Shown: positions 21,046 through 31,024 of the stretch, piece after piece
Layout of the letters: the number at the start of each line of letters is the position of its first letter
Numbering within the stretch: position 1 is the stretch's first letter
Source: Bdellovibrionota bacterium
GTDB lineage: Bacteria; Bdellovibrionota_C; UBA2361; JBIKWN01
DNA length: 49,534 bases
NCBI GenBank assembly: GCA_044356295.1
Contig: JBIKWN010000014.1
Location: 1-49,534 of the forward strand
Direction of reading: 5' to 3'
Position numbers and translations under genes: made by a program
The notes under the pieces: model-generated
What the model was told of the DNA's origin: nothing
Databases searched by the model: none
The model's input: the letters and a program-made list of their open reading frames with translations, nothing else

Positions 21046-21423
21046 TTAGCTACAACCTCTGTCTCCACCGTTAGCACTATCCCAAGTACAAGTTCTAGCT
21101 GGAGTACCACCAGGGTGCGATGAAGTACCAGTAAAGCTTGTTGCTCCACCAGTTAAACTAAGAACAACACCATTCGATGCTCTGAATCCAGGAAGTGCAG
21201 TTGCACAAGCTGCAGCATCAGCACATGTCGCATATGATTCATTCGTTGCAAAGTATGCTTCTTCAGCAGTTGCACCATTTCTTAGATCGCTTCTTGCACG
21301 CGCATCGAATCCTCTTTGTCTGTAGCTAGAAAACTGTGGAATTGCAATTGCTGCAAGGATTCCGATGATTGCTACTACGACAAGTAGTTCGATAAGTGTA
21401 AAGCCCTTTTGACCTCTTTTCAT
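21046..21423 (-). CDS. pilA: Type IVa major pilin
   Basis: Class III leader [31 protein letters not shown] with Glu+5; own sigma-54-type promoter and terminator. Confidence 0.95.
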
Positions 21424-21497
21424 TTTATTCTCCCAAATACGGTTATTCTCTATTCAGGGATGTAAGAGGTACTTACCCTCCCTTCGAATCCCTATAA

Positions 21498-21514
21498 AGC
21501 AATACGGATGCCAA
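21498..21514 (-). promoter_or_regulatory. Sigma-54 (-24/-12) promoter of pilA
   Basis: Minus strand TTGGCAT-CCGTA-TTGCT versus consensus TGGCAC-N5-TTGCW, with correct GG/GC spacing, 75 bp upstream of the pilA ATG. Confidence 0.85.
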
Positions 21515-21561
21515 TCAAAAAAGGTTTAGGATTTATTAGAAAAATTATTAAAATATTGTAA

Positions 21562-21574
21562 TTTCAAATAGTTA
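21562..21574 (+). promoter_or_regulatory. Putative IHF binding site
   Basis: TTTCAAATAGTTA is one mismatch from WATCAANNNNTTR, in an AT-rich tract between the sigma-54 promoter and the upstream repeats. Confidence 0.45.
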
Positions 21575-21611
21575 TATCCAATTTTGCCCCTATCCTCACA
21601 GCTCAATTAGA

Positions 21612-21641
21612 GACAAAATTTGGCTGGTGACAAAAATTGGC
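21612..21641. promoter_or_regulatory. Putative enhancer (UAS) for the PilR-type activator
   Basis: Direct repeats GACAAAATTTGGC (21612-21624) and GACAAAAATTGGC (21629-21641), about 100-130 bp upstream of the -24 element. Confidence 0.55.
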
Positions 21642-21657
21642 GCCCATTTGGTCAAAA

Positions 21658-22284
21658 ATGAAAAAACTCTTTGTATTAAGCTCCTTACTACTTTTTATTA
21701 TTAGCTCTGCAATCTCGCAGACTGCTGTTCTAGATCTTACAGAAAAGAGAGTTCAAGAAAGTAGTAAATCAAAAATCCATGAAGAGCTGTATCTTCCATC
21801 AGGTGATGGACTTTCTCTTTTTTCACTTGGCTTCAAAAATGTCATGGCTGATGTTCTTTGGTTTAGAACGATAAATTACTTTGGGCGAGAGTTTGCAGGA
21901 GATCAAGATTACCGTTTTCTGATTCACTACGTAAATCTTGTAGTCGATTTAAATCCTCGTATGGATTTTGTTTATCAATTTGGGAGCATGATGTTTGCTT
22001 GGGAGTTAAAAGACCCGAAGCAGAGCATTGCTCTGCTGACTAAAGGGATTTATGCCTTACCAGAAAACTGGCTCTTACGTTACTATAGAGGATTCATGTA
22101 CTTTTACTTTTTTAAAGATAACGACAAAGCAATTGAAGATTTTAAAATTGCAGCTCTCAATATAAATGCACATCCAATGATTGCTCGATTGGCTGAAAAA
22201 CTTGACCGAGAAAGCGCACTTGAAACTTTGTCAGAAACTACTGGTGATGTAGCTTTAAAATCATTTCTTCATTCAAAACAGTGA
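21658..22284 (+). CDS. PilG/XapA-like TPR-type pilus accessory protein
   Basis: ADVLWFRTINYFG, VDLNP, KG...LPENW.L..Y.GF..F pattern; precedes an ABC ATPase and permease next to pilA as in Myxococcus pilGHI; ATG at 21658 preferred over TTG at 21637. Confidence 0.7.
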   Translation: MKKLFVLSSLLLFIISSAISQTAVLDLTEKRVQESSKSKIHEELYLPSGDGLSLFSLGFKNVMADVLWFRTINYFGREFAGDQDYRFLIHYVNLVVDLNPRMDFVYQFGSMMFAWELKDPKQSIALLTKGIYALPENWLLRYYRGFMYFYFFKDNDKAIEDFKIAALNINAHPMIARLAEKLDRESALETLSETTGDVALKSFLHSKQ

Positions 22285-23021
22285 ATAATTCATTAACTAT
22301 AAATAATCTTTTCATCTCTTATCGTTCTTCATGGACAGGAAAGAAAACAAACATCATCAATGACGTTTCATTTGTAGTACCATCCGGTGAAGCAGTAGGA
22401 TATTTAGGTGTTAACGGGGCAGGAAAAACCTCAACAATTAAAGCAATTTTAAGTTTAATAACTCAAGATTCAGGCTCAATCGAAATATTTGGCATTCCAT
22501 CCCAAAATGCTCACTCGAGATCGCTGATTGGATATCTTCCAGAGCAGCCCTATTGGTATGAAAATCTGACCGTCAAAGAGACGATTGAATTTTACGGAGC
22601 TCTCTTTGATCTGAGTGCAAAAGAAAGCATGTCACGATCTCAAATTTTAATTGAGCGTCTTGGGCTTTCTCCTAAAATGAATTCTCGAATCAAAAGTCTA
22701 TCTAAGGGGTTAATGCAAAGAGTTGGACTAATTCAAACACTCATTAATCATCCACAACTTTTAATACTTGATGAGCCATTCTCGGGACTAGACCCTCTTG
22801 CTAGAAAACTTTTTCGAGATATCTTCCTTGAAGAAAAAAAGAGGGGCGTCTCTATCCTGATTTCATCACATATACTTCCTGACGTAGAGGCTCTGTGTGA
22901 TAGAGCGCTCATTATTCATAACAAACAAATTCAGGCAGATATAAATCTTCGAACCATCCAAGAAAATCATCAGTCTCTAGAAACGATTTTTACTTCAATA
23001 GCAGGACCAATAGCCGTATGA
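22281..23021 (+). CDS. ABC transporter ATP-binding protein (PilH-like)
   Basis: Walker A GVNGAGKTS, LSKG signature, LLILDEPFSGLDP, SSH. Confidence 0.92.
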   Translation: MNNSLTINNLFISYRSSWTGKKTNIINDVSFVVPSGEAVGYLGVNGAGKTSTIKAILSLITQDSGSIEIFGIPSQNAHSRSLIGYLPEQPYWYENLTVKETIEFYGALFDLSAKESMSRSQILIERLGLSPKMNSRIKSLSKGLMQRVGLIQTLINHPQLLILDEPFSGLDPLARKLFRDIFLEEKKRGVSILISSHILPDVEALCDRALIIHNKQIQADINLRTIQENHQSLETIFTSIAGPIAV

Positions 23022-23797
23022 GTATTCGTCCCCTCACCGCCCAGATATCTATTACTATGAAAGAAATCCTGCGTGGCGGAACGGTTATTGGACTTTTTAT
23101 CGCATGGATACTCTTACTGCTCACTGCAACGGCTTTCGGGTCGGTCAGTATTGGTGAAAGAGTTTTTGTTATTAAAGACTTTGGTTTGTTTTTAACCACA
23201 CTCTCTGTCGTTTGCATTACTTTTATTGCAGGTTCTGGAATACTTTCTAAAGAGATACGCCAAAAAAATATTTATACTGTTCTTTCAAAGCCTATTAGTC
23301 GCTTCTCGTATCTTACTTCAAAATGGCTTGGCCTGTGGATTGTAGGGCTTATCATCAATACAACACTTCACTTTTCATTATGCTTTTACTTATTCTTATT
23401 TGAAGGCTCTTGGCATTTCTCTATTCTTTCAAATATTTTATTTTTAGGAATTGAGGGGCTTATTCTTTCAGCTCTCACTCTTGTCATTGCTAGCCTCTTT
23501 GTAACTCCAATGCTTGTAGGAATTATCACTTTTCTTCTTTTTGTTGTAGGAAGAAATTTGGATACTATTTCAAATTTACTCGAAAAAACCTCAACCGAAT
23601 CAGCTCTTTCTTACATCTTAGAGATCGTCAAATCAGTACTTCCTCACCTGTACCTACTCAACGTTACAAACGACTTAACGTATTCAATAGTACCAAGCCT
23701 AGCAACGATGCTCTCTGCCTCTGTATATGGCTTTTCCTATGCAACTGCTTGTTTCATACTATCTTTATTTATTTTTTCTCGAAGAACCTTTAATTAA
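23018..23797 (+). CDS. ABC transporter permease (PilI-like)
   Basis: Six TM segments, KEI..KNIYTVLSKPISR...L..K.LG motif; overlaps the ATPase stop. Confidence 0.85.
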   Translation: MSIRPLTAQISITMKEILRGGTVIGLFIAWILLLLTATAFGSVSIGERVFVIKDFGLFLTTLSVVCITFIAGSGILSKEIRQKNIYTVLSKPISRFSYLTSKWLGLWIVGLIINTTLHFSLCFYLFLFEGSWHFSILSNILFLGIEGLILSALTLVIASLFVTPMLVGIITFLLFVVGRNLDTISNLLEKTSTESALSYILEIVKSVLPHLYLLNVTNDLTYSIVPSLATMLSASVYGFSYATACFILSLFIFSRRTFN

Positions 23798-23815
23798 ACT
23801 GTCATCAAAATACCC

Positions 23816-24886
23816 ATGCTAAGTAAAGACTCAAAAGAATTCCTTCATCAACTTCTTCTTACCCCATCACCAACTGGATACGAACAAAAAATCCAAGCAG
23901 TGGTTAGAAACCATATGAAAGGGTTTGCTGATTCAATCGAAACTGACCTCCACGGCAACGTCATTGTTGGACTCAATACAAAAGCACCTATCAAAGTCAT
24001 GCTTGCAGGTCACTGCGACCAGATTGGTCTGATGGTAAAGCATATCAATAAAGATGGGTTTATTTATGTCAGCGCTCTTGGTGGCATTGATGTCGGAGTA
24101 TTACCGGGCACACATTTTACTATTCATACAAGTAAAGGTCCTGTTAAAGCTATCGGTGGAAGAAAACCAATCCACGCACAAACAGCAGATGAACGCGGAA
24201 AAGTTCACAGCGATATTGATAAAATTTGGCTCGACATCGGTGCTGATTCTAAAAAAAGTGCTGAAAAAATGGTCGAAATAGGTGATGCAATTACATTTCG
24301 TTTAGAGGTAACGGAGCTTTCAAAAGACTTTGTATCTGCACCTGGACTCGATGATAAAGTTGGTGTCTTTATCGCAATGGAAACTTTAAAGCTCTGCAAA
24401 AAAGCAAAATTAAATGTTGGTGTGTACGCTGCAAGTACTGTTCAAGAAGAAGTAGGACTTCGTGGAGCAAGAACAGCGGCGTATGCAATCGATCCGACTG
24501 TTGGAATAGCAATAGATGTTACTCATGCATCTGATAATCCTGGTTCTACGAATCCAATTGCAACTGAGTGTAAGCTTGGAAAAGGTCCTGGAATTTCAAA
24601 AGGTCCAAATACTAATCCAGTAGTAGAAAAAATGCTTCTTGCTGCGGCAAAGAAAGGAAAGATTCCGTATCAAATTAGTCCATCAGCTTCCCTACTTGGA
24701 AACGATGCTAATGCAATTCAGGTATCACGGGCAGGGGTTGCAACTGCAAGCATAGGAATTCCAAATCGATATATGCATACACAGGTTGAAGTGTGTTCTT
24801 ATAACGACTTACACAACTCTGCTAAACTACTGTTTGAGTTCATTAAATCAATCACTGCAAAGACTGATTTCCGACCAATGTCGTAA
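23816..24886 (+). CDS. M42 family metallopeptidase
   Basis: SPTGYE, AGHCDQIG, LDDKVG, VQEEVGLRGA, IAIDV, PNRYMHT. Confidence 0.95.
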   Translation: MLSKDSKEFLHQLLLTPSPTGYEQKIQAVVRNHMKGFADSIETDLHGNVIVGLNTKAPIKVMLAGHCDQIGLMVKHINKDGFIYVSALGGIDVGVLPGTHFTIHTSKGPVKAIGGRKPIHAQTADERGKVHSDIDKIWLDIGADSKKSAEKMVEIGDAITFRLEVTELSKDFVSAPGLDDKVGVFIAMETLKLCKKAKLNVGVYAASTVQEEVGLRGARTAAYAIDPTVGIAIDVTHASDNPGSTNPIATECKLGKGPGISKGPNTNPVVEKMLLAAAKKGKIPYQISPSASLLGNDANAIQVSRAGVATASIGIPNRYMHTQVEVCSYNDLHNSAKLLFEFIKSITAKTDFRPMS

Positions 24887-24979: not shown

Positions 24980-25195
24980 ATGTCAGAAAATTATAAAAAA
25001 ACATGCGATAAACTTCACGATGAAGCAGTTCTAAAAGGCATAGAATTCTATATCGACCCAAAGACTCAATATCAAGTTTTTACTCGATTGAAGCATCTTG
25101 AAAGGGGACATTGTTGCTCTTCAGATTGTCGGCACTGTCCTTACCCGAAGAACCATACATCTTGTCATAACGATAACGAAACGAACGAAAGTTAA
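24980..25195 (+). CDS. Small Cys-rich protein, DUF5522-like
   Basis: YIDP.T.Y.VFT...[17 protein letters not shown]; 3' end overlaps the convergent activator gene by 116 bp. Confidence 0.75.
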
Positions 25196-26747
25196 TTCCG
25201 AGAAGTTCTGCAGCTTTCTTTTTTACTCCCCCTGATTGCTTCATCGCACGGTCGATATAGCTCTTTTCTAAACTTTCAATAAGCTCTTCAAGATTTACGG
25301 GAAGTGAAACTGAAGATACATCTACGAGATCAGTCATTTTCATCTCTGCATCAAGAGCATCAGTATTCTTGATAGGCGGCACATGATCAGGAAAGATTCC
25401 TTCGTCACCAAAGACAAGTGCTCTCTCTAGAATATTTTCTAATTCTCGTACATTTCCTGGATAATCATAGCTCATTAATCGATTCATCGTAGCAACGGGA
25501 ATCAAAGGCAACTCTTTTCCTTTTTGAAGTTTTGCAAGAATTGTATGAACTAAAATTGGGATATCTTCTTTTCTTTCTAACAGGGAGGGAAGTTGAATGC
25601 CTATTACATTTAATCGGTAATATAAATCTTCTCGAAATCGCCCTGCTTGCACTTCAAGTTTTAAATTCCGATTTGTAGCAGCGATAATACGAACATCGAT
25701 ACAGATATCTTTTGTTCCCCCTACTGGTCGCACTATTCGCTCTTGTAATACTCGAAGTAGTTTTGCTTGAAGGCTCAGTGGAAGCTCTCCGATCTCATCA
25801 AGAAAAATTGTTCCTTTATGGGCTTCAACAAAAAGCCCCATATGATCGCTAATTGCTCCTGTAAAGGAGCCCTTTTTATGACCAAAAAGCTCACTCTCTA
25901 AAAGGTTTTCAGGAATTGCCCCGCAGTTTACAACGACTAAATTTTCATTTGCTCTTGAAGAAAGCCGATGAATTCCTTTTGCAACAACTTCCTTTCCTGT
26001 ACCTGATGGGCCTGTAATAAGGACCGTTGCATCAGTCGGTGCAGCGCGAAACATCAATTCTCGCACTTTTTGTATAACAATACTTTCACCAGTTAATCCT
26101 GAAATTTCATGATGTGTAGCATCGAAACGAGATTTTGCATCGTCAAATTCTGCTTGAACAGTTAAATAACTTTCTACTTCATTGAGACGAATTTTCAACT
26201 GTTCTCTTTCTGAAAGAAGCGTTCTGATTTCTTCTACTTTTCCTGTAAGTGCTTCGTACGCAGCTCTTGATTGCTCAACTATGTATCTGGATGCTACAGA
26301 CACTAAAACAAAGCCACTTCCAACTCCTAACAAGTGGATACCAATAGTTGTTATGTTTGAAGTATTTGTTACTAAAGAAACAAGTGCATAGGCAAGAAAA
26401 GTTATTGTTCCAACAAATAAAATTCGACGTTCAGTCGTATTCGTTGCAAACAACATCATAAGCGGTAGATACAGCACTACGAAAAAGCTTTCATTTATTC
26501 CAGTTAGTAAAATTGCAAAACTATTTAACAAGAGAGAGCACTCGCCGTTGTATTTTGAGATACGTGATCTATTCCCAGCGCATAGGGCAATAGTTAATGT
26601 ATAGAGGGCAACAAAATATATTATATCGATTTTTCCTAGAGGTGCCTGACTTAGATAAATATCTCCCGTAACAAAAAGTGCAGTACAGAACGCAACAACT
26701 TTTCTAATAAGCTGAATACGTTCTGTATAGGAAGTAAGTACTTGCAT
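25080..26747 (-). CDS. Membrane-anchored sigma-54 enhancer-binding protein: PilS-like sensor domain fused to PilR-like AAA+ and HTH domains
   Basis: About 6 N-terminal TM helices with [15 protein letters not shown]; Walker [76 protein letters not shown]. Confidence 0.88.
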
Positions 26748-26750
26748 GTA

Positions 26751-27971
26751 TTATCCAACAACACTTCCCATTTTAAATATCGGAAGATACATTGCGATAA
26801 CGAGAGCACCAATAATTGTTCCTAATACAAGAATCATTATTGGCTCAATCAGTTGCTTCATTGATCCTACTGCTGTATCAACTTCTTCTTCATAAAAATC
26901 AGCAATCTTGGCAAGCATTGCATCAAGACAACCAGTTTGTTCTCCAACGCCAATCATCTGAGTAACCATTGGTGGAAATACCGCAGAATCCTGCAGTGGC
27001 TCAACCATCGTCTTACCTTCAGAGATTGCAACTCGTGCACGAAGAACGTCTCGCTCAACCACTTTGTTTCCAGCTGTTCTCGCACAGATATTTAAAGCTT
27101 CCATAATTGGAACTCCGGAGCTGACCATCGTACCTAACGTTCTCGTAAAACGTGCGACTGCAACTTTTTTTATAATATTTCCAAATATAGGAAGTTTTAA
27201 TGCAATTGGGTGAATAACTTCTTTTCCTCTTTCAGTTTTTATAAAGCGGAAAAACATCGAAAGCGACAGACCAAGAGATCCAAAAATTAAATACCACCAA
27301 CTTACAAAAAAGTTAGAAAGATTAATAACAATCTGAGTAGGTAAAGGAAGAGCTGAGCCAAAGCCTGAGAATAAATCAGCAAAAGTTGGAATTACGAATA
27401 TAAGAAGAATTGAAGTTACAATACCTGCTGCGCTTACAACAACAGCTGGATAAATCATTGCTGCTTTAATCTCTCTCTTTAAACGCATGGCTTTTTCCAT
27501 GTGCTGAGAAAGTCTTTCTAAAATAACATCTAAAATACCGCCGTTTTCTCCAGCGTTAATCATATTCGTGTAGAGATTATCAAACTGGCGTGGATGTTTT
27601 GCCATCGCTTCCGAAAGTGTACCCCCACTTTCAACATCTTCTTTGATTGCTTTAAGAATTTTTTGAAAGATCTTATTTTCGGTTTGCTTCGCTAAAATAT
27701 CGAGCGCTTGAACCATTGGTAAACCAGAATCGATCATCGTTGCAAACTGCCGTGTAAAAAGGACGATGTCTTTGCCCGATACACCAGAGCCAAACGATGG
27801 CATCTTGATCTCCATCTCAAGACCTTTGCCTTTTTCGCGGATCTTATTCGCAGTAGGTACAATCTTTTGCGCACGAAGAAGGTTAAAGACTGCTTGCATA
27901 TCACGAGCGTCAACTTCTCCTTTTACTAACCTTCCTTGTAGATTCTTGCCTTCCCAAACAAATACAGTCAT
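26751..27971 (-). CDS. pilC: Type IV pilus inner membrane platform protein PilC
   Basis: FTRQFATMIDSGLP, GENGGILD, AMIYP, ARFTRTLGTM, GEQTG.LD.ML, AMYLPIF. Confidence 0.96.
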   Translation of the reverse strand: MTVFVWEGKNLQGRLVKGEVDARDMQAVFNLLRAQKIVPTANKIREKGKGLEMEIKMPSFGSGVSGKDIVLFTRQFATMIDSGLPMVQALDILAKQTENKIFQKILKAIKEDVESGGTLSEAMAKHPRQFDNLYTNMINAGENGGILDVILERLSQHMEKAMRLKREIKAAMIYPAVVVSAAGIVTSILLIFVIPTFADLFSGFGSALPLPTQIVINLSNFFVSWWYLIFGSLGLSLSMFFRFIKTERGKEVIHPIALKLPIFGNIIKKVAVARFTRTLGTMVSSGVPIMEALNICARTAGNKVVERDVLRARVAISEGKTMVEPLQDSAVFPPMVTQMIGVGEQTGCLDAMLAKIADFYEEEVDTAVGSMKQLIEPIMILVLGTIIGALVIAMYLPIFKMGSVVG

Positions 27972-28164: not shown

Positions 28165-29862
28165 TTAATCGCCAATCGTACAACGAAGCACTTCCTCGAC
28201 TGTTGTCATACCAGATTTTAGTCTCATAAGAGCAGAGGCTCGAAGCGTCATCATCCCTTGAGCAATAGCTTCCTTTTTAATCTCAGAAGCTGGGGCACCT
28301 TTTAGAATTTTTTCTTTAATAGATTCATTCATAACAAGCACTTCATACAGTGCAATTCGACCTTTATAGCCCGTTCCTGAGCATCGTTCACACCCTTTTC
28401 CTTGTCGAAGTTTTATTGTGCTCGCTTCTTCCGCTGAGAGCCCAATCGCTTTTAACATCTCAATATCAGCAACAATATCTTCAGCACACCCGCTACAAAT
28501 TTTTCTAGCTAAGCGTTGTGCTAAGATAGAATTAATAGACGAGGAAACAAGAAACGGCTCTACTCCCATATTCAACACACGATTAATCGTCGACGCGGCA
28601 TCATTTGTATGGAGTGTTGAAAGTACTAAGTGACCGGTGAGTGAAGCCTTGATGGCAATCTCTGCTGTTTCTAAATCGCGGATCTCTCCAACCATGATAA
28701 CGTCAGGATCTTGTCTTAAGAAAGCGCGCAGTGCTGCCGCAAAGTTATACCCGATATCCTCATTCATCTGGGCTTGGTTAATACCCATAAGGTTAAATTC
28801 AACAGGATCTTCTGCGGTTGAAATATTTGTTGCAATTTTATTGAGATCCGCAAGAGCCGAATATAGTGTAGTTGTTTTTCCTGATCCTGTTGGCCCAGTC
28901 ACGAGTACCATTCCATGTGGCTTATGAATCGAAGCAAGAAAATCTGCTAATTGCTTCTCTTCAAATCCGAGTTTGGTCATATCAAGTTGTAGATTAGATT
29001 TATCAAGTAATCTAAGAACTACTTTCTCACCAAAAAGAGTAGGCAAAACGTTAACTCGAAAATCCATCTCGCGCCCATTTCCAATTTTCAACTTAATCCT
29101 TCCATCTTGAGGAAGTCGACGCTCAGCTATATCAAGATCCGCCATGATCTTTAAACGTGAAGTAATAGCAGCTTTAAGCTTCATTGGTGGCTTCATGATT
29201 TCATAAAGCACTCCATCGATACGAAATCTTACTCTGAATGATTTTTCGTATGGCTCTAAGTGAATATCAGAGGCTCCTTTTTTTATTGCATCTGTTAAAA
29301 TTGCATTCACTAATTTAACAACAGGAGCATCTTCTGTTTGACGCTCGAGATCATCGAGCGCTATTTGCTCTTCAGCACTGACCACCGAAACTTCTGTTTC
29401 ATCAAGATCGCCAATAATTTTGTCGTACTGAACCGCACTTTCGTAATATTTTTCTATTGTATTCTTAAGTTCGGTTTCAGTAGTCAATACAACTCGAATA
29501 TCTAATCCGGTAAGGAACTTCACATCATTCATTGCAACAAGATTTGATGGGTCTACCATTGCAACGGTAAGCGTTGAATCTTGTCTGACTATTGGTATAA
29601 GTCCATATTTTGATGCAAGCGTATGAGGAATAAGCTGTATAACAGAATCTTCTATTTTTATATTTGGAAGTTCTATAATTTGAAAACCAAAATGATCACT
29701 TAAAATCTCTGCAACTTGTTTTTCAGAGAGCGCACCTGTCTTAACAAGATGACTTCCAATAAAACCACCACCTGTAGTTTTTTGATTTTCTTGGGCCACA
29801 GAAAGCTGTTCTGGCGTAATTTTACCAGTCTTTACTATTACCTCACCCAGCCTTGCATTCAT
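28165..29862 (-). CDS. pilB: Type IVa pilus extension ATPase PilB
   Basis: N-terminal RLGE MshEN-like start, ASDIHLEP, GPTGSGKTTT, TAEDPVE, LRQDPDVIMVGEIRD, TGHLVLSTLH, Zn-binding CxxC pairs; ATG at 29862 preferred over TTG at 29898. Confidence 0.96.
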   Translation of the reverse strand: MNARLGEVIVKTGKITPEQLSVAQENQKTTGGGFIGSHLVKTGALSEKQVAEILSDHFGFQIIELPNIKIEDSVIQLIPHTLASKYGLIPIVRQDSTLTVAMVDPSNLVAMNDVKFLTGLDIRVVLTTETELKNTIEKYYESAVQYDKIIGDLDETEVSVVSAEEQIALDDLERQTEDAPVVKLVNAILTDAIKKGASDIHLEPYEKSFRVRFRIDGVLYEIMKPPMKLKAAITSRLKIMADLDIAERRLPQDGRIKLKIGNGREMDFRVNVLPTLFGEKVVLRLLDKSNLQLDMTKLGFEEKQLADFLASIHKPHGMVLVTGPTGSGKTTTLYSALADLNKIATNISTAEDPVEFNLMGINQAQMNEDIGYNFAAALRAFLRQDPDVIMVGEIRDLETAEIAIKASLTGHLVLSTLHTNDAASTINRVLNMGVEPFLVSSSINSILAQRLARKICSGCAEDIVADIEMLKAIGLSAEEASTIKLRQGKGCERCSGTGYKGRIALYEVLVMNESIKEKILKGAPASEIKKEAIAQGMMTLRASALMRLKSGMTTVEEVLRCTIGD

Positions 29863-29992
29863 TTCGTATGAAACCCTAAGAGAATCCTTTAGATCCAAGT
29901 AAGAAAATCGACTGTTATTGATAAAACCTTGAATTTTTTGAAGGTTTTTCGAAGAATTGGTTAAATATCGAAAATCATTGATAATTTAGGTA

Positions 29993-31024
29993 ATGGGACG
30001 ACCTAAAAAAAGCTTAAAAAAGAATAGCGCTACCAATGAAGCTATCATTGAGGTGCTTCCCGCTATCTCTTCTGATGTTGAAGAGGATCTCTTACCAGAG
30101 CCATTAGACGCCGTTGAAGTTGTCGAACTTGAAGATTCTATTGCAGAAGATTTACAAGAAAAAGAAGAGAAGCAATATTATCCAACAAAGTATAACCCAC
30201 TTGATATCTATCTTAGAGAAGTTAGTAAGATACGACGAATTACAAAAGAAGAAGAGAAAGAGATCTCGCTAAGATATTTTCAAACAAAAGATATTGCTGC
30301 TGCTCGAACTTTAATCCAATCAAACTTATGGCTTGTTATAAGACTAGCTCGAGATTATCAAAACGCTGCACGAAATCTCTTAGACCTAATTCAAGAAGGA
30401 AATCTTGGATTAATGGAAGCTGTAAAAAACTTTGATCCTTTTCGTGAAGTACGTTTTCCCTCATACGCTACATGGTGGATTAAAGCTTATATTGTTCGTT
30501 ATTTGATTGCGAATTTTCGCATGGTTAAAATTGGAACAACACAGGCTCAAAGAAAACTATTTTTTAATTTAAAAAAAGAAAAAGAAAAACTTGAACGACA
30601 AGGTTTTTTTCCTGCACCAAAACTTCTCGCTGAAAAACTTGATGTTCGTGAAAGTGACATAATTGAAATGGAACAACGTCTCTCGAGCGGTGACATGAGT
30701 GTTGATGCACCGCTTTCAGATAATCCTGATTCAGATATGCTCTCGATTTTGCCAAATCAACAGATGTCTGCAGAAGATGTTTTGTCTGAATATCAAAGTC
30801 AGCAGAATCTCAAAGAGCACTTCGCTGAATTTGAAAAAACCTTAAATGCTAAGGAAAAGGTTATTTTTAGAGAACGTCTCCTCCAAGAGCAAAAGGCAAC
30901 CTTACATGAGTTGAGCGAAAAGCTTTTAGTCAGTAAAGAGCGTATACGCCAGATAGAAGAGCGATTGTTGGAGAAATTAAAAGATTTCCTCACCGATAAA
31001 ATCGACCCTTTGGAGATTTCTTAA
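29993..31024 (+). CDS. rpoH: RNA polymerase sigma-32 (RpoH-like) factor
   Basis: Region 2 DLIQEGNLGLM, YATWWIKA, RpoH box QRKLFFNL, region 4 VSKERIRQIE. Confidence 0.88.
   Translation: MGRPKKSLKKNSATNEAIIEVLPAISSDVEEDLLPEPLDAVEVVELEDSIAEDLQEKEEKQYYPTKYNPLDIYLREVSKIRRITKEEEKEISLRYFQTKDIAAARTLIQSNLWLVIRLARDYQNAARNLLDLIQEGNLGLMEAVKNFDPFREVRFPSYATWWIKAYIVRYLIANFRMVKIGTTQAQRKLFFNLKKEKEKLERQGFFPAPKLLAEKLDVRESDIIEMEQRLSSGDMSVDAPLSDNPDSDMLSILPNQQMSAEDVLSEYQSQQNLKEHFAEFEKTLNAKEKVIFRERLLQEQKATLHELSEKLLVSKERIRQIEERLLEKLKDFLTDKIDPLEIS

Follow-up and report, generated by a model that had tools for sequence, protein, structure and literature searches.

Among the closest described counterparts of the gene analyzed here is the PilS–PilR system of Pseudomonas aeruginosa and other bacteria. 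According to PMC6058289, the six transmembrane (TM) segments of PilS interact with PilA, and an extract of PMC6528607, citing Kilmury & Burrows 2016, states that Arg24 of PilS as well as Glu5 and Pro22 of PilA matter for this interaction. In cultured Bdellovibrio bacteriovorus, pilC is followed by separate pilS and pilR genes, and type IV pili are required for predation in Bdellovibrio-like bacteria (both from excerpts of PMC4237445). We analyzed a stretch of 49,534 nucleotides from a Bdellovibrionota bacterium (contig JBIKWN010000014.1 of assembly GCA_044356295.1; hereafter, the window), in which the place behind pilB–pilC where pilS–pilR would stand is taken by one gene encoding a 555-aa protein; an earlier note on this DNA had claimed this position, which was borne out. 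We consider it likely that the gene encodes a single integral-membrane activator of pilA, composed of a PilS-type six-TM (6TM) domain, a long helix and a PilR-type AAA+ domain with a helix-turn-helix (HTH), the signal of which is most likely pilin.

The window protein shares with PilS–PilR a six-TM domain that includes the TM1 Arg and a TG..S.F..LY motif, and the system also has in common with it a PilR-type AAA+ domain and HTH, the location in a pil cluster and a sigma-54 pilin promoter. It differs in being one polypeptide, predicted to stay in the membrane, and in having lost the TM3 Asp. Further, because it carries neither a PAS, HisKA or HATPase_c domain nor a receiver, no phosphotransfer is expected.

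The earlier note knew of no described example of such a fusion; one does exist and was the only published precedent found, namely gonococcal Rsp, a fusion of the pilS/pilR homologues nps and npa (Carrick et al. 2000, as cited in extracts of PMC6528607 and PMC10269533). Rsp is reported to be without effect on pilE transcription in the former extract and to repress pilin expression in the latter. Likened by description only, Rsp and the window protein both join a PilS-derived membrane N-terminus and a PilR-derived C-terminus in one protein. However, the literature regards Rsp as a recent remnant found in a single species, whereas the family of the window protein is ancient and broadly distributed, shows purifying selection and occurs together with rpoN and a pilA promoter of the sigma-54 type.

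Other described systems share single traits with the window protein. ToxR, TcpP and CadC, covered in the census PMC10269533, are one-component regulators working on DNA while embedded in the cytoplasmic membrane, as is proposed for the window protein, but they have a single TM segment, an OmpR-type winged helix and sigma-70 promoters instead of six TM segments, an AAA+ motor and sigma-54. In a term search of that census, ‘sigma’, ‘HTH_8’ and ‘NtrC’ had 0 occurrences and ‘AAA’ occurred once, meaning FtsH. RegB/RegA and GrtK/GrtR have a TM domain of the same Pfam family, PF25323, as the PilS-type domain; unlike the window protein, they consist of kinases with short non-AAA+ regulators and have no linkage to pil genes. 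PilS, PilR, sigma-54 activators and membrane-bound one-component regulators (the last in PMC10269533) are known already; the window protein belongs, as a short and diverged form lacking PAS, to a fusion family that is virtually unstudied. Searches of open-access full text and bioRxiv found no paper on a conserved fusion family or on a functional class of integral-membrane sigma-54 activators, and the GrtK paper was the only match to PF25323.

The gene and its parts were delimited as follows.

25080..26747, minus strand: whole gene of the predicted 555-aa membrane-anchored sigma-54 activator (PilS-TM/PilR fusion without PAS), from the open reading frame (ORF) and its translation, Pfam, and positional orthologues in two other species of the genus (G001 and G002).

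26277..26747, minus strand: six-TM domain, residues 1-157, a diverged PilS-type 6TM (hydropathy, AlphaFold2 helices and a profile of 13 relatives).

26094..26276, minus strand: predicted linker helix, residues 158-218, continuous with TM6 (AlphaFold2 helix 132-207, alignment and phmmer matches).

25377..26093, minus strand: sigma-54 AAA+ domain and lid, residues 219-457 (PF00158 at E 1.5e-69, PF25601 and invariant columns).

25167..25280, minus strand: Fis-type HTH_8, residues 490-527, with the PilR-type signature INFRSFRYR (PF02954 at E 2.7e-11).

The ORF starts with an ATG that sits 3 nt past the stop codon of pilC, and no ORF of at least 80 aa was found on the opposite strand of 25080-26747. 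The ORF, the size of 555 aa and the position after pilC stood as given in the earlier note, and the strand was corrected to minus. Pfam assigned residues 219-384 to Sigma54_activat (E 1.5e-69), 391-457 to AAA_lid_14 and 490-527 to HTH_8; residues 1-218 had no real match even at E<=10, with noise only at E >=0.6. In line with the earlier claim that these domains are absent, Pfam matched no PAS, HisKA, HATPase_c or Response_reg domain anywhere in the protein. The AAA+ motifs GPSGTGKE, GSFTGA and DEIGE (Walker B) occupy residues 246-253, 293-298 and 317-321, respectively. The 15-residue TM motif and the 21-residue HTH motif quoted previously were found at about residues 80-95 and at 506-526, so that all of the quoted TM, AAA+ and HTH motifs could be located in the protein.

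Hydropathy and an AlphaFold2 model (25 homologues; mean pLDDT, the model's per-residue confidence, 79.8) concur on six TM helices, with modelled helices at residues 7-32, 39-57, 60-82, 88-101, 106-127 and 132-207. The counts of Lys plus Arg (K+R) were 3, 3, 2 and 3 in the presumed cytoplasmic loops versus 1, 0 and 0 in the remaining ones, which obeys the positive-inside rule and thus points to an N-in/C-in topology. Hydropathy and the model bear out the approximately six TM helices read from the sequence beforehand. Only 61 residues span the distance between TM6 and the AAA+ domain and, in the model, helix 132-207 carries TM6 unbroken up to that domain, with no obvious loop. This linker occupies the place of the PAS domain plus linker in most relatives (alignment A4). 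Its best heptad register is hydrophobic at 8 of 17 a/d positions, which is weak, and a coiled coil formed by the linker helix is plausible. Hence, from the coiled coil of about 50 aa claimed in the earlier note, one continuous predicted helix was retained, and its coiled-coil nature is plausible only.

With activators of the NtrC1/DctD/NtrC4/LuxO type (1ny5, 4l4u, 3dzd and 5ep0), the window protein has the AAA+ core in common (E 1e-60 to 1e-64). As aligned with phmmer, the matches to NtrC1 (1ny5), 4l4u and LuxO (5ep0) start at query residues 179-183, within the linker helix, and the NtrC1-type match accordingly extends into the pre-AAA+ helix. In NtrC1-type activators, this pre-AAA+ helix is the linker used for negative control. 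There, it leads from a receiver switched by phosphorylation, whereas the linker of the window protein would be the extension of a TM helix.

Homology of the TM part to the PilS-type 6TM domain is supported by profile comparisons. A hidden Markov model (HMM) was built from the 6TM_PilS N-termini of 13 relatives belonging to other families only, with the genus excluded. It scored the three genus proteins at 34-47 bits and residues 1-157 of the window protein at 30-34 bits. When run against 4302 six-frame genome ORFs of at least 90 aa, this HMM recovered only the ORF under study (E 5.1e-8) and a kinase encoded on contig C46 (E 3.7e-8), with the third-ranked ORF at E 0.62. A profile of 17 N-termini gave 5441 matches at E<=1e-3 in 1.84 billion representative proteins; the best 150 of these 5441 comprised 34 activator fusions, which were topmost, 73 kinases of 471-614 aa and 43 mostly short fragments. 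A PilS layout, defined as 500-620 aa with a kinase core beginning past residue 290, was found in 71 of the 73 kinases. With the profile of these 71 PilS-architecture kinases, the genus N-termini reached 22-29 bits (E 2e-5 at Z=4302 for the window protein), and a RegB/GrtK-type profile, made from five sequences only, gave 12.9 bits for one genus protein and left the other two unmatched. The membrane-domain profile matched 0 PDB chains at E<=1.

At the level of single residues, an alignment of 74 PilS-type kinases, 13 fusions and the three genus proteins showed that the TM1 Arg is invariant in all 74 kinases and all 13 fusions and is kept in the genus as R10. The window protein also retained the PilS-family invariant residues G83, S87, F89, Y93 and Y120. 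In the genus, the TGG..SPF motif is altered to TG(I/L/Y)..SFF. The positions of the TM3 Gln and Asp (residues 67-71, window 26535-26549) read N/G/S and S/S/A in the genus. Overall, the resemblance of residues 1-170 to the PilS N-terminal domain proposed in the earlier note was recovered with the profiles of relatives and of PilS kinases, and was not recovered with Pfam PF25323.

The AAA+/HTH half is supported as PilR-like by its relatives, its phylogeny and its recognition helix. Relatives of residues 205-555 were drawn from a collection of 5.8 billion proteins, with the query itself as one of the 120 best rows. In the precomputed Pfam annotation, PF25323 was present in 76 of the 120 best rows (own count) and PF00072 in none. 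Among the 119 nearest relatives, 108 matched the 6TM profile and 0 the receiver profile, the latter picking up five of six control activators. The relatives carry the source name ‘sigma 54-interacting transcriptional regulator’ and the JGI label ‘PilR’, and the labels of their metagenome-assembled genomes are Bdellovibrionales, Oligoflexia, Bdellovibrionota and Dadabacteria.

A tree was inferred from 68 AAA+-HTH regions by a quick search under LG+G4, with Shimodaira–Hasegawa-like approximate likelihood ratio test (SH-aLRT) support only; in it, the genus formed a clade with support 100, nested within a larger clade (support 93) that comprises 20 fusions. A 95% branch joined the fusions and three proteins from loci L049, L054 and L057, separate from 42 other activators. 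Five of the genome's six other activators are among these 42; the remaining one, encoded on contig C93, sits on a very long branch and is placed with little certainty. Canonical pairs stand at L049, L054 and L057, each made up of a 6TM_PilS-PAS-HisKA-HATPase_c kinase beside a REC-AAA+-HTH_8 regulator, and at L049 a pilin gene also adjoins the pair. The recognition-helix signature [FL]RS[FL]RY[RK] is common to the fusions and to these three proteins, is absent from the other activators compared and was found exactly once among the ORFs of the genome. The grouping of the AAA+ domain with PilR anticipated in the earlier note was thus recovered, both by this branch and by the shared HTH signature. 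All NCBIfam activator equivalogs scored under their cut-offs, and hence no named subfamily could be assigned. The Walker A motif reads GPSGTGKE in the genus and in the nearest metagenome relatives P0006 and P0009 (residue 247, window 26010-26012), and GESG[TV]GK(E/S/T) in the other activators examined.

The gene is real and under purifying selection. In G001 and G002, it lies in the same slot, between pilC and a convergent M42 peptidase, and encodes a 552-aa and a 535-aa protein, the N-termini of which are 53% and 29% identical to that of the window protein, respectively; three 552-aa metagenome proteins share the N-terminus. The TM/linker/AAA+ junction was found intact by contig mapping, with Logan contigs from four other lake-water metagenome runs, belonging to four studies, spanning it with no indels reported; one such contig covers 25942-26613 with zero differences. 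The 21 sequencing runs that were found included no listed RNA run. An assembly deletion at the junction is ruled out by the G001 and G002 orthologues together with these bridging contigs. Third codon positions made up 24 of the 27 variant sites in the bridging contigs (own arithmetic), and the TM region followed the same pattern. In a contig of run X4, 103 bases of the AAA+ lid (25634-25738) are swapped for a diverged stretch of equal length, which may represent strain-level recombination or a chimeric contig.

Fusions of this architecture extend well beyond the genus. In other families of the order, all nine genes examined after pilB–pilC carry 6TM_PilS above the Pfam cut-off, Sigma54_activat and HTH_8, so that the same fusion is indeed present in related genomes, where the earlier note had suggested looking for it. 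Eight of these nine also carry a PAS domain and are 662-714 aa long; the sole PAS-less one has 575 aa. When 124 genomes of the class were searched with a 676-aa fusion protein as the query, 49 gave a single-frame match from about residues 10-86 through to at least residue 665, and such matches come from at least 25 of the 36 sampled families (counted by us from the rows listed). In this survey, matches at the AAA+ level only were obtained for genus g8 (35 genomes) and families f7 and f2/g2, and G008 has no regulator behind pilB–pilC. Short forms without a Pfam PAS follow pilB–pilC in G012, G020, G010, G059 and G041; two short forms retain an insert at the PAS position (alignment A4), and the short forms are scattered in the tree, the resolution of which is low. 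Among 80 loci from a whole-protein search of genome contigs, one other fusion (L047) and three canonical pilS–pilR neighbourhoods were found.

This distribution indicates that the 6TM_PilS-PAS-AAA+-HTH fusion is old and widespread in the class, and that the genus holds a derived, diverged form without PAS and without some of the invariant TM residues, as judged from the alignments. The single-protein PilS–PilR fusion described in the earlier note therefore stood as an architecture, and its collapse was not an event of this lineage, given the fusion in at least 25 of 36 class families. The fusion family is common in uncultured, presumably predatory relatives of Bdellovibrio, and is probably the main pilin regulator of the whole class. 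With this family, which spans Bdellovibrionota and other phyla, the window protein shares the position after pilB–pilC, the AAA+ clade, the HTH signature and the type of pilA promoter. It differs in having no PAS and 555 aa versus about 660-715 aa, a TM domain under the Pfam threshold, the Walker A motif GPSGTGKE instead of GESGTGKE, and four genes between regulator and pilA.

A Bdellovibrio-type pilC–pilS–pilR anchor for the tree was sought in g8 and rejected, as the pilB/pilC cluster there is a different one without a regulator and the 6TM kinase is RegB-like. At the g8 loci L151 and L152 (G027 and G100), pilB/pilC-like genes stand behind a gene for 933-940 aa with no fused regulator nearby, and the g8 pilC-like genes are only 34-35% identical to the window pilC. 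In family f2 (L149, G003:C56, 5270-8423), three 120-aa pilin genes in tandem come after pilB–pilC, without a regulator, and one of the three has an upstream -24/-12 site, TGGCATCCGATTTGCT.

The genome (G000; 2.96 Mb, 93.6% complete) carries one rpoN and seven true sigma-54 activators. Of the six activators other than the one described here, five have a receiver-like N-terminus by eye and the sixth lies at a contig end. No canonical PilS/PilR was found in this 93.6% complete genome by 6TM-profile, activator and HTH-signature searches, which bears on the earlier note's concern that a canonical PilSR elsewhere might drive pilA. The only other PilS-type 6TM protein of the genome is the C46 kinase (447 aa; L043:3095-4949, minus strand), which is RegB-like. 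Its partner is a 174-aa REC-HTH_8 regulator, and genes for MprF-like lysyl-phosphatidylglycerol synthases lie on both sides. This layout is of the RegB/RegA or GrtK/GrtR kind described in PMC12918730, and the pair is therefore not taken as PilSR.

The likely target of the activator, pilA, lies in the window together with a sigma-54 promoter and upstream repeats.

21046..21423, minus strand: pilA, major pilin candidate of 125 aa and likely target (N_methyl at E 8.8e-11; pilin alignment).

21498..21513, minus strand: sigma-54 -24/-12 promoter TGGCATCCGTATTGCT, 75 nt upstream of the pilA ATG.

21561..21574, minus strand: IHF-like site TAACTATTTGAAAT between the candidate enhancer and the promoter, in the conserved block TAACCTATTGAWATCA.

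21610..21640, minus strand: tandem direct repeat CCAATTTTTGTCACC / CCAAATTTTGTCTC, a candidate enhancer (upstream activating sequence, UAS), 97-127 nt upstream of the -24 element.

The pilA product has the leader MKRGQKG followed by FTLIE, and both Glu5 and Pro22 of the mature pilin are present. TGGCATCCGTATTGCT is one of two 1-mismatch sigma-54 sites in the window, where 2-mismatch sites were not above chance (25 found vs. 19.9 expected), and belongs to the six exact TGGCAY-N5-TTGCW matches that the 2.96-Mb genome contains. The 11-mer core of the repeat occurs eight times in the genome and is paired only upstream of pilA. In an alignment of the pilA upstream regions of the three species, the repeat pair, the TAACCTATTGAWATCA block and the -24/-12 element were constant and the remainder diverged. 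By the IHF consensus, WATCAANNNNTTR, the element TAACTATTTGAAAT would be a candidate IHF site. At loci L039 and L040, where the pilin gene directly follows a fused regulator, and at the canonical locus L049, the pilin gene has a -24/-12 site and, farther upstream, repeats of the TTTGTCAC/GTGACAAA type. GTCT elements are a hallmark of PilR sites, according to PMC6058289. We infer from this arrangement that the activator may control the sigma-54 pilA promoter via the repeats. Downstream of the promoter, the pilA leader holds an imperfect hairpin, AGGGAGGGTAAG...CTTACATCCCT (21456-21483, minus strand), which is identical in G000 and G002, and a leader of the AGGGAAGCGAAG type just past the promoter is common to relatives.

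In the mechanism that we propose, the activator would be co-transcribed with pilB–pilC. Its binding site would be the tandem pair of TTTTGTC(A/T)C repeats located about 100-130 bp upstream of the -24/-12 element of pilA. While anchored in the inner membrane, its AAA+ ring would remodel the sigma-54 holoenzyme at pilA. The 6TM domain would read a signal in the membrane, for which the analogy with PilS suggests the unassembled pilin pool as the most likely candidate, and this signal would travel along the TM6-linker helix to the AAA+ domains. The linker may hold an inactive dimer, as in NtrC1/DctD-type activators, and the signal would shift the AAA+ domains to the active ring; if it behaves like PilS, the activator would be switched off when pilin is abundant. 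We put forward as predictions that the activator binds the repeats, that it activates pilA, that its signal is pilin and that a dimer turns into a ring; the direction of the regulation is likewise a prediction. A more specific version, which we advance tentatively and hold to be possible but somewhat doubtful, has Glu5 of pilin helix 1 docking on Arg10 of the 6TM domain and the TM6-linker driving assembly or disassembly of the AAA+ ring, with no phosphorylation, PAS or soluble intermediate involved. If true, the pilin inventory would be converted directly into pilA transcription.

Such a system would bear on how PilS reads membrane pilin and on how the signal is transferred to the cytoplasm. 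With a TM domain connected to an ATPase through one helix, there is no kinase, phosphatase or receiver step in between, which would allow a simple reporter-based assay of the signal. For sigma-54 activation, it raises the question of how an activator with six TM segments per subunit forms a ring and meets enhancer and promoter at the membrane.

The feasibility of that last step is a weak point of the proposed pilin-reading membrane activator, and several other points weigh against it as well. The literature searches described above returned no characterised precedent for a ring formed by a six-TM activator or for a membrane-located promoter. pilA lies 3.6 kb downstream of the activator and is not adjacent to it, with four plus-strand genes intervening. 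The Pfam 6TM_PilS (PF25323) model has no match in the 555-aa protein. The TM3 Asp, present in all 74 kinases and all 13 fusions, is replaced by S71, the near-invariant TM3 Gln by N67 and the second Gly of the TGG motif by I84; with these invariant TM residues lost, the sensing pocket may differ. Glu5, Pro22 and a membrane-edge Arg are common features and thus weak evidence, and domains of the PF25323 type are also found in the non-pilin sensors RegB and GrtK, the latter an ammonia sensor (PMC12918730, in part). The PilR anchors of the quick SH-aLRT tree are three proteins defined by their neighbourhood, not experimentally studied PilRs. A predicted complex of the TM domain (residues 1-175) with mature pilin scored 0.00, had no controls and weighs neither way.

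Part of these observations would fit the same membrane-bound pilA activator with a 6TM domain that reads something other than pilin, such as quinone/redox, a small molecule, lipid or proton-motive-force status. That PF25323 covers PilS, RegB and the ammonia sensor GrtK (PMC12918730, in part) speaks for this alternative. So do the missing TM3 Asp and Gln, invariant elsewhere, and the altered TGG..SPF motif of the genus. The RegB motif that corresponds to TGG..SPF binds ubiquinone. We nevertheless consider a non-pilin signal unlikely, as the N-terminus scores 22-29 bits with PilS-architecture kinases versus at most 12.9 bits with the five-sequence RegB/GrtK-type profile, the gene is fixed behind pilB–pilC across the class and the TM1 Arg is retained. 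It is less probable still, and in our view very unlikely, that the TM domain is a mere anchor or polar-targeting device and the AAA+-HTH part constitutive or freed by proteolysis. Activators without a regulatory domain, such as PspF, whose AAA+ domain is among the PDB matches, are active by themselves, and the TM domain of PilS is reportedly involved in polar targeting, going by the title of a paper by Ethier and Boyd from 2000. However, variation in the TM domain is dominated by third codon positions like that in the rest of the gene, PilS-family invariant residues are retained, no break or obvious loop interrupts the modelled helix between TM6 and the AAA+ domain, and the in-line PAS sensor of most relatives argues for signal transmission. 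Lastly, a decaying pilS–pilR remnant, as which gonococcal Rsp is regarded (Carrick et al. 2000, cited in the extracts of PMC6528607 and PMC10269533), or an assembly artefact is highly improbable. The frame is intact with all AAA+ motifs present, the gene is conserved over three species and the class, rpoN is intact and the sigma-54 promoter at pilA conserved, and independent contigs span the junction without indels, with variants mainly at third codon positions.

Upstream of the activator, the gene order is pilB, pilC and then the 555-aa gene.

26751..27971, minus strand: pilC, directly upstream of the activator (T2SSF at E 6e-71; NF052606 PilC at 509 bits, under its cut-off of 700).

28165..29898, minus strand: pilB, type IV-A pilus assembly ATPase (TIGR02538 at 770 bits vs. 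a cut-off of 675.65).

A gene of the sigma-70 family, encoding 343 aa with regions 1.2, 2 and 4, lies divergently from pilB on the plus strand at 29993-31024. On the other side, four plus-strand genes stand between the activator and pilA (21637-24886), an arrangement limited to this genus. They encode a 215-aa secreted protein, an ABC ATPase, an ABC-2 permease and an M42 aminopeptidase. The 215-aa protein has a signal peptide and no match in Pfam or NCBIfam searches, and its true start is probably the ATG at 21658.

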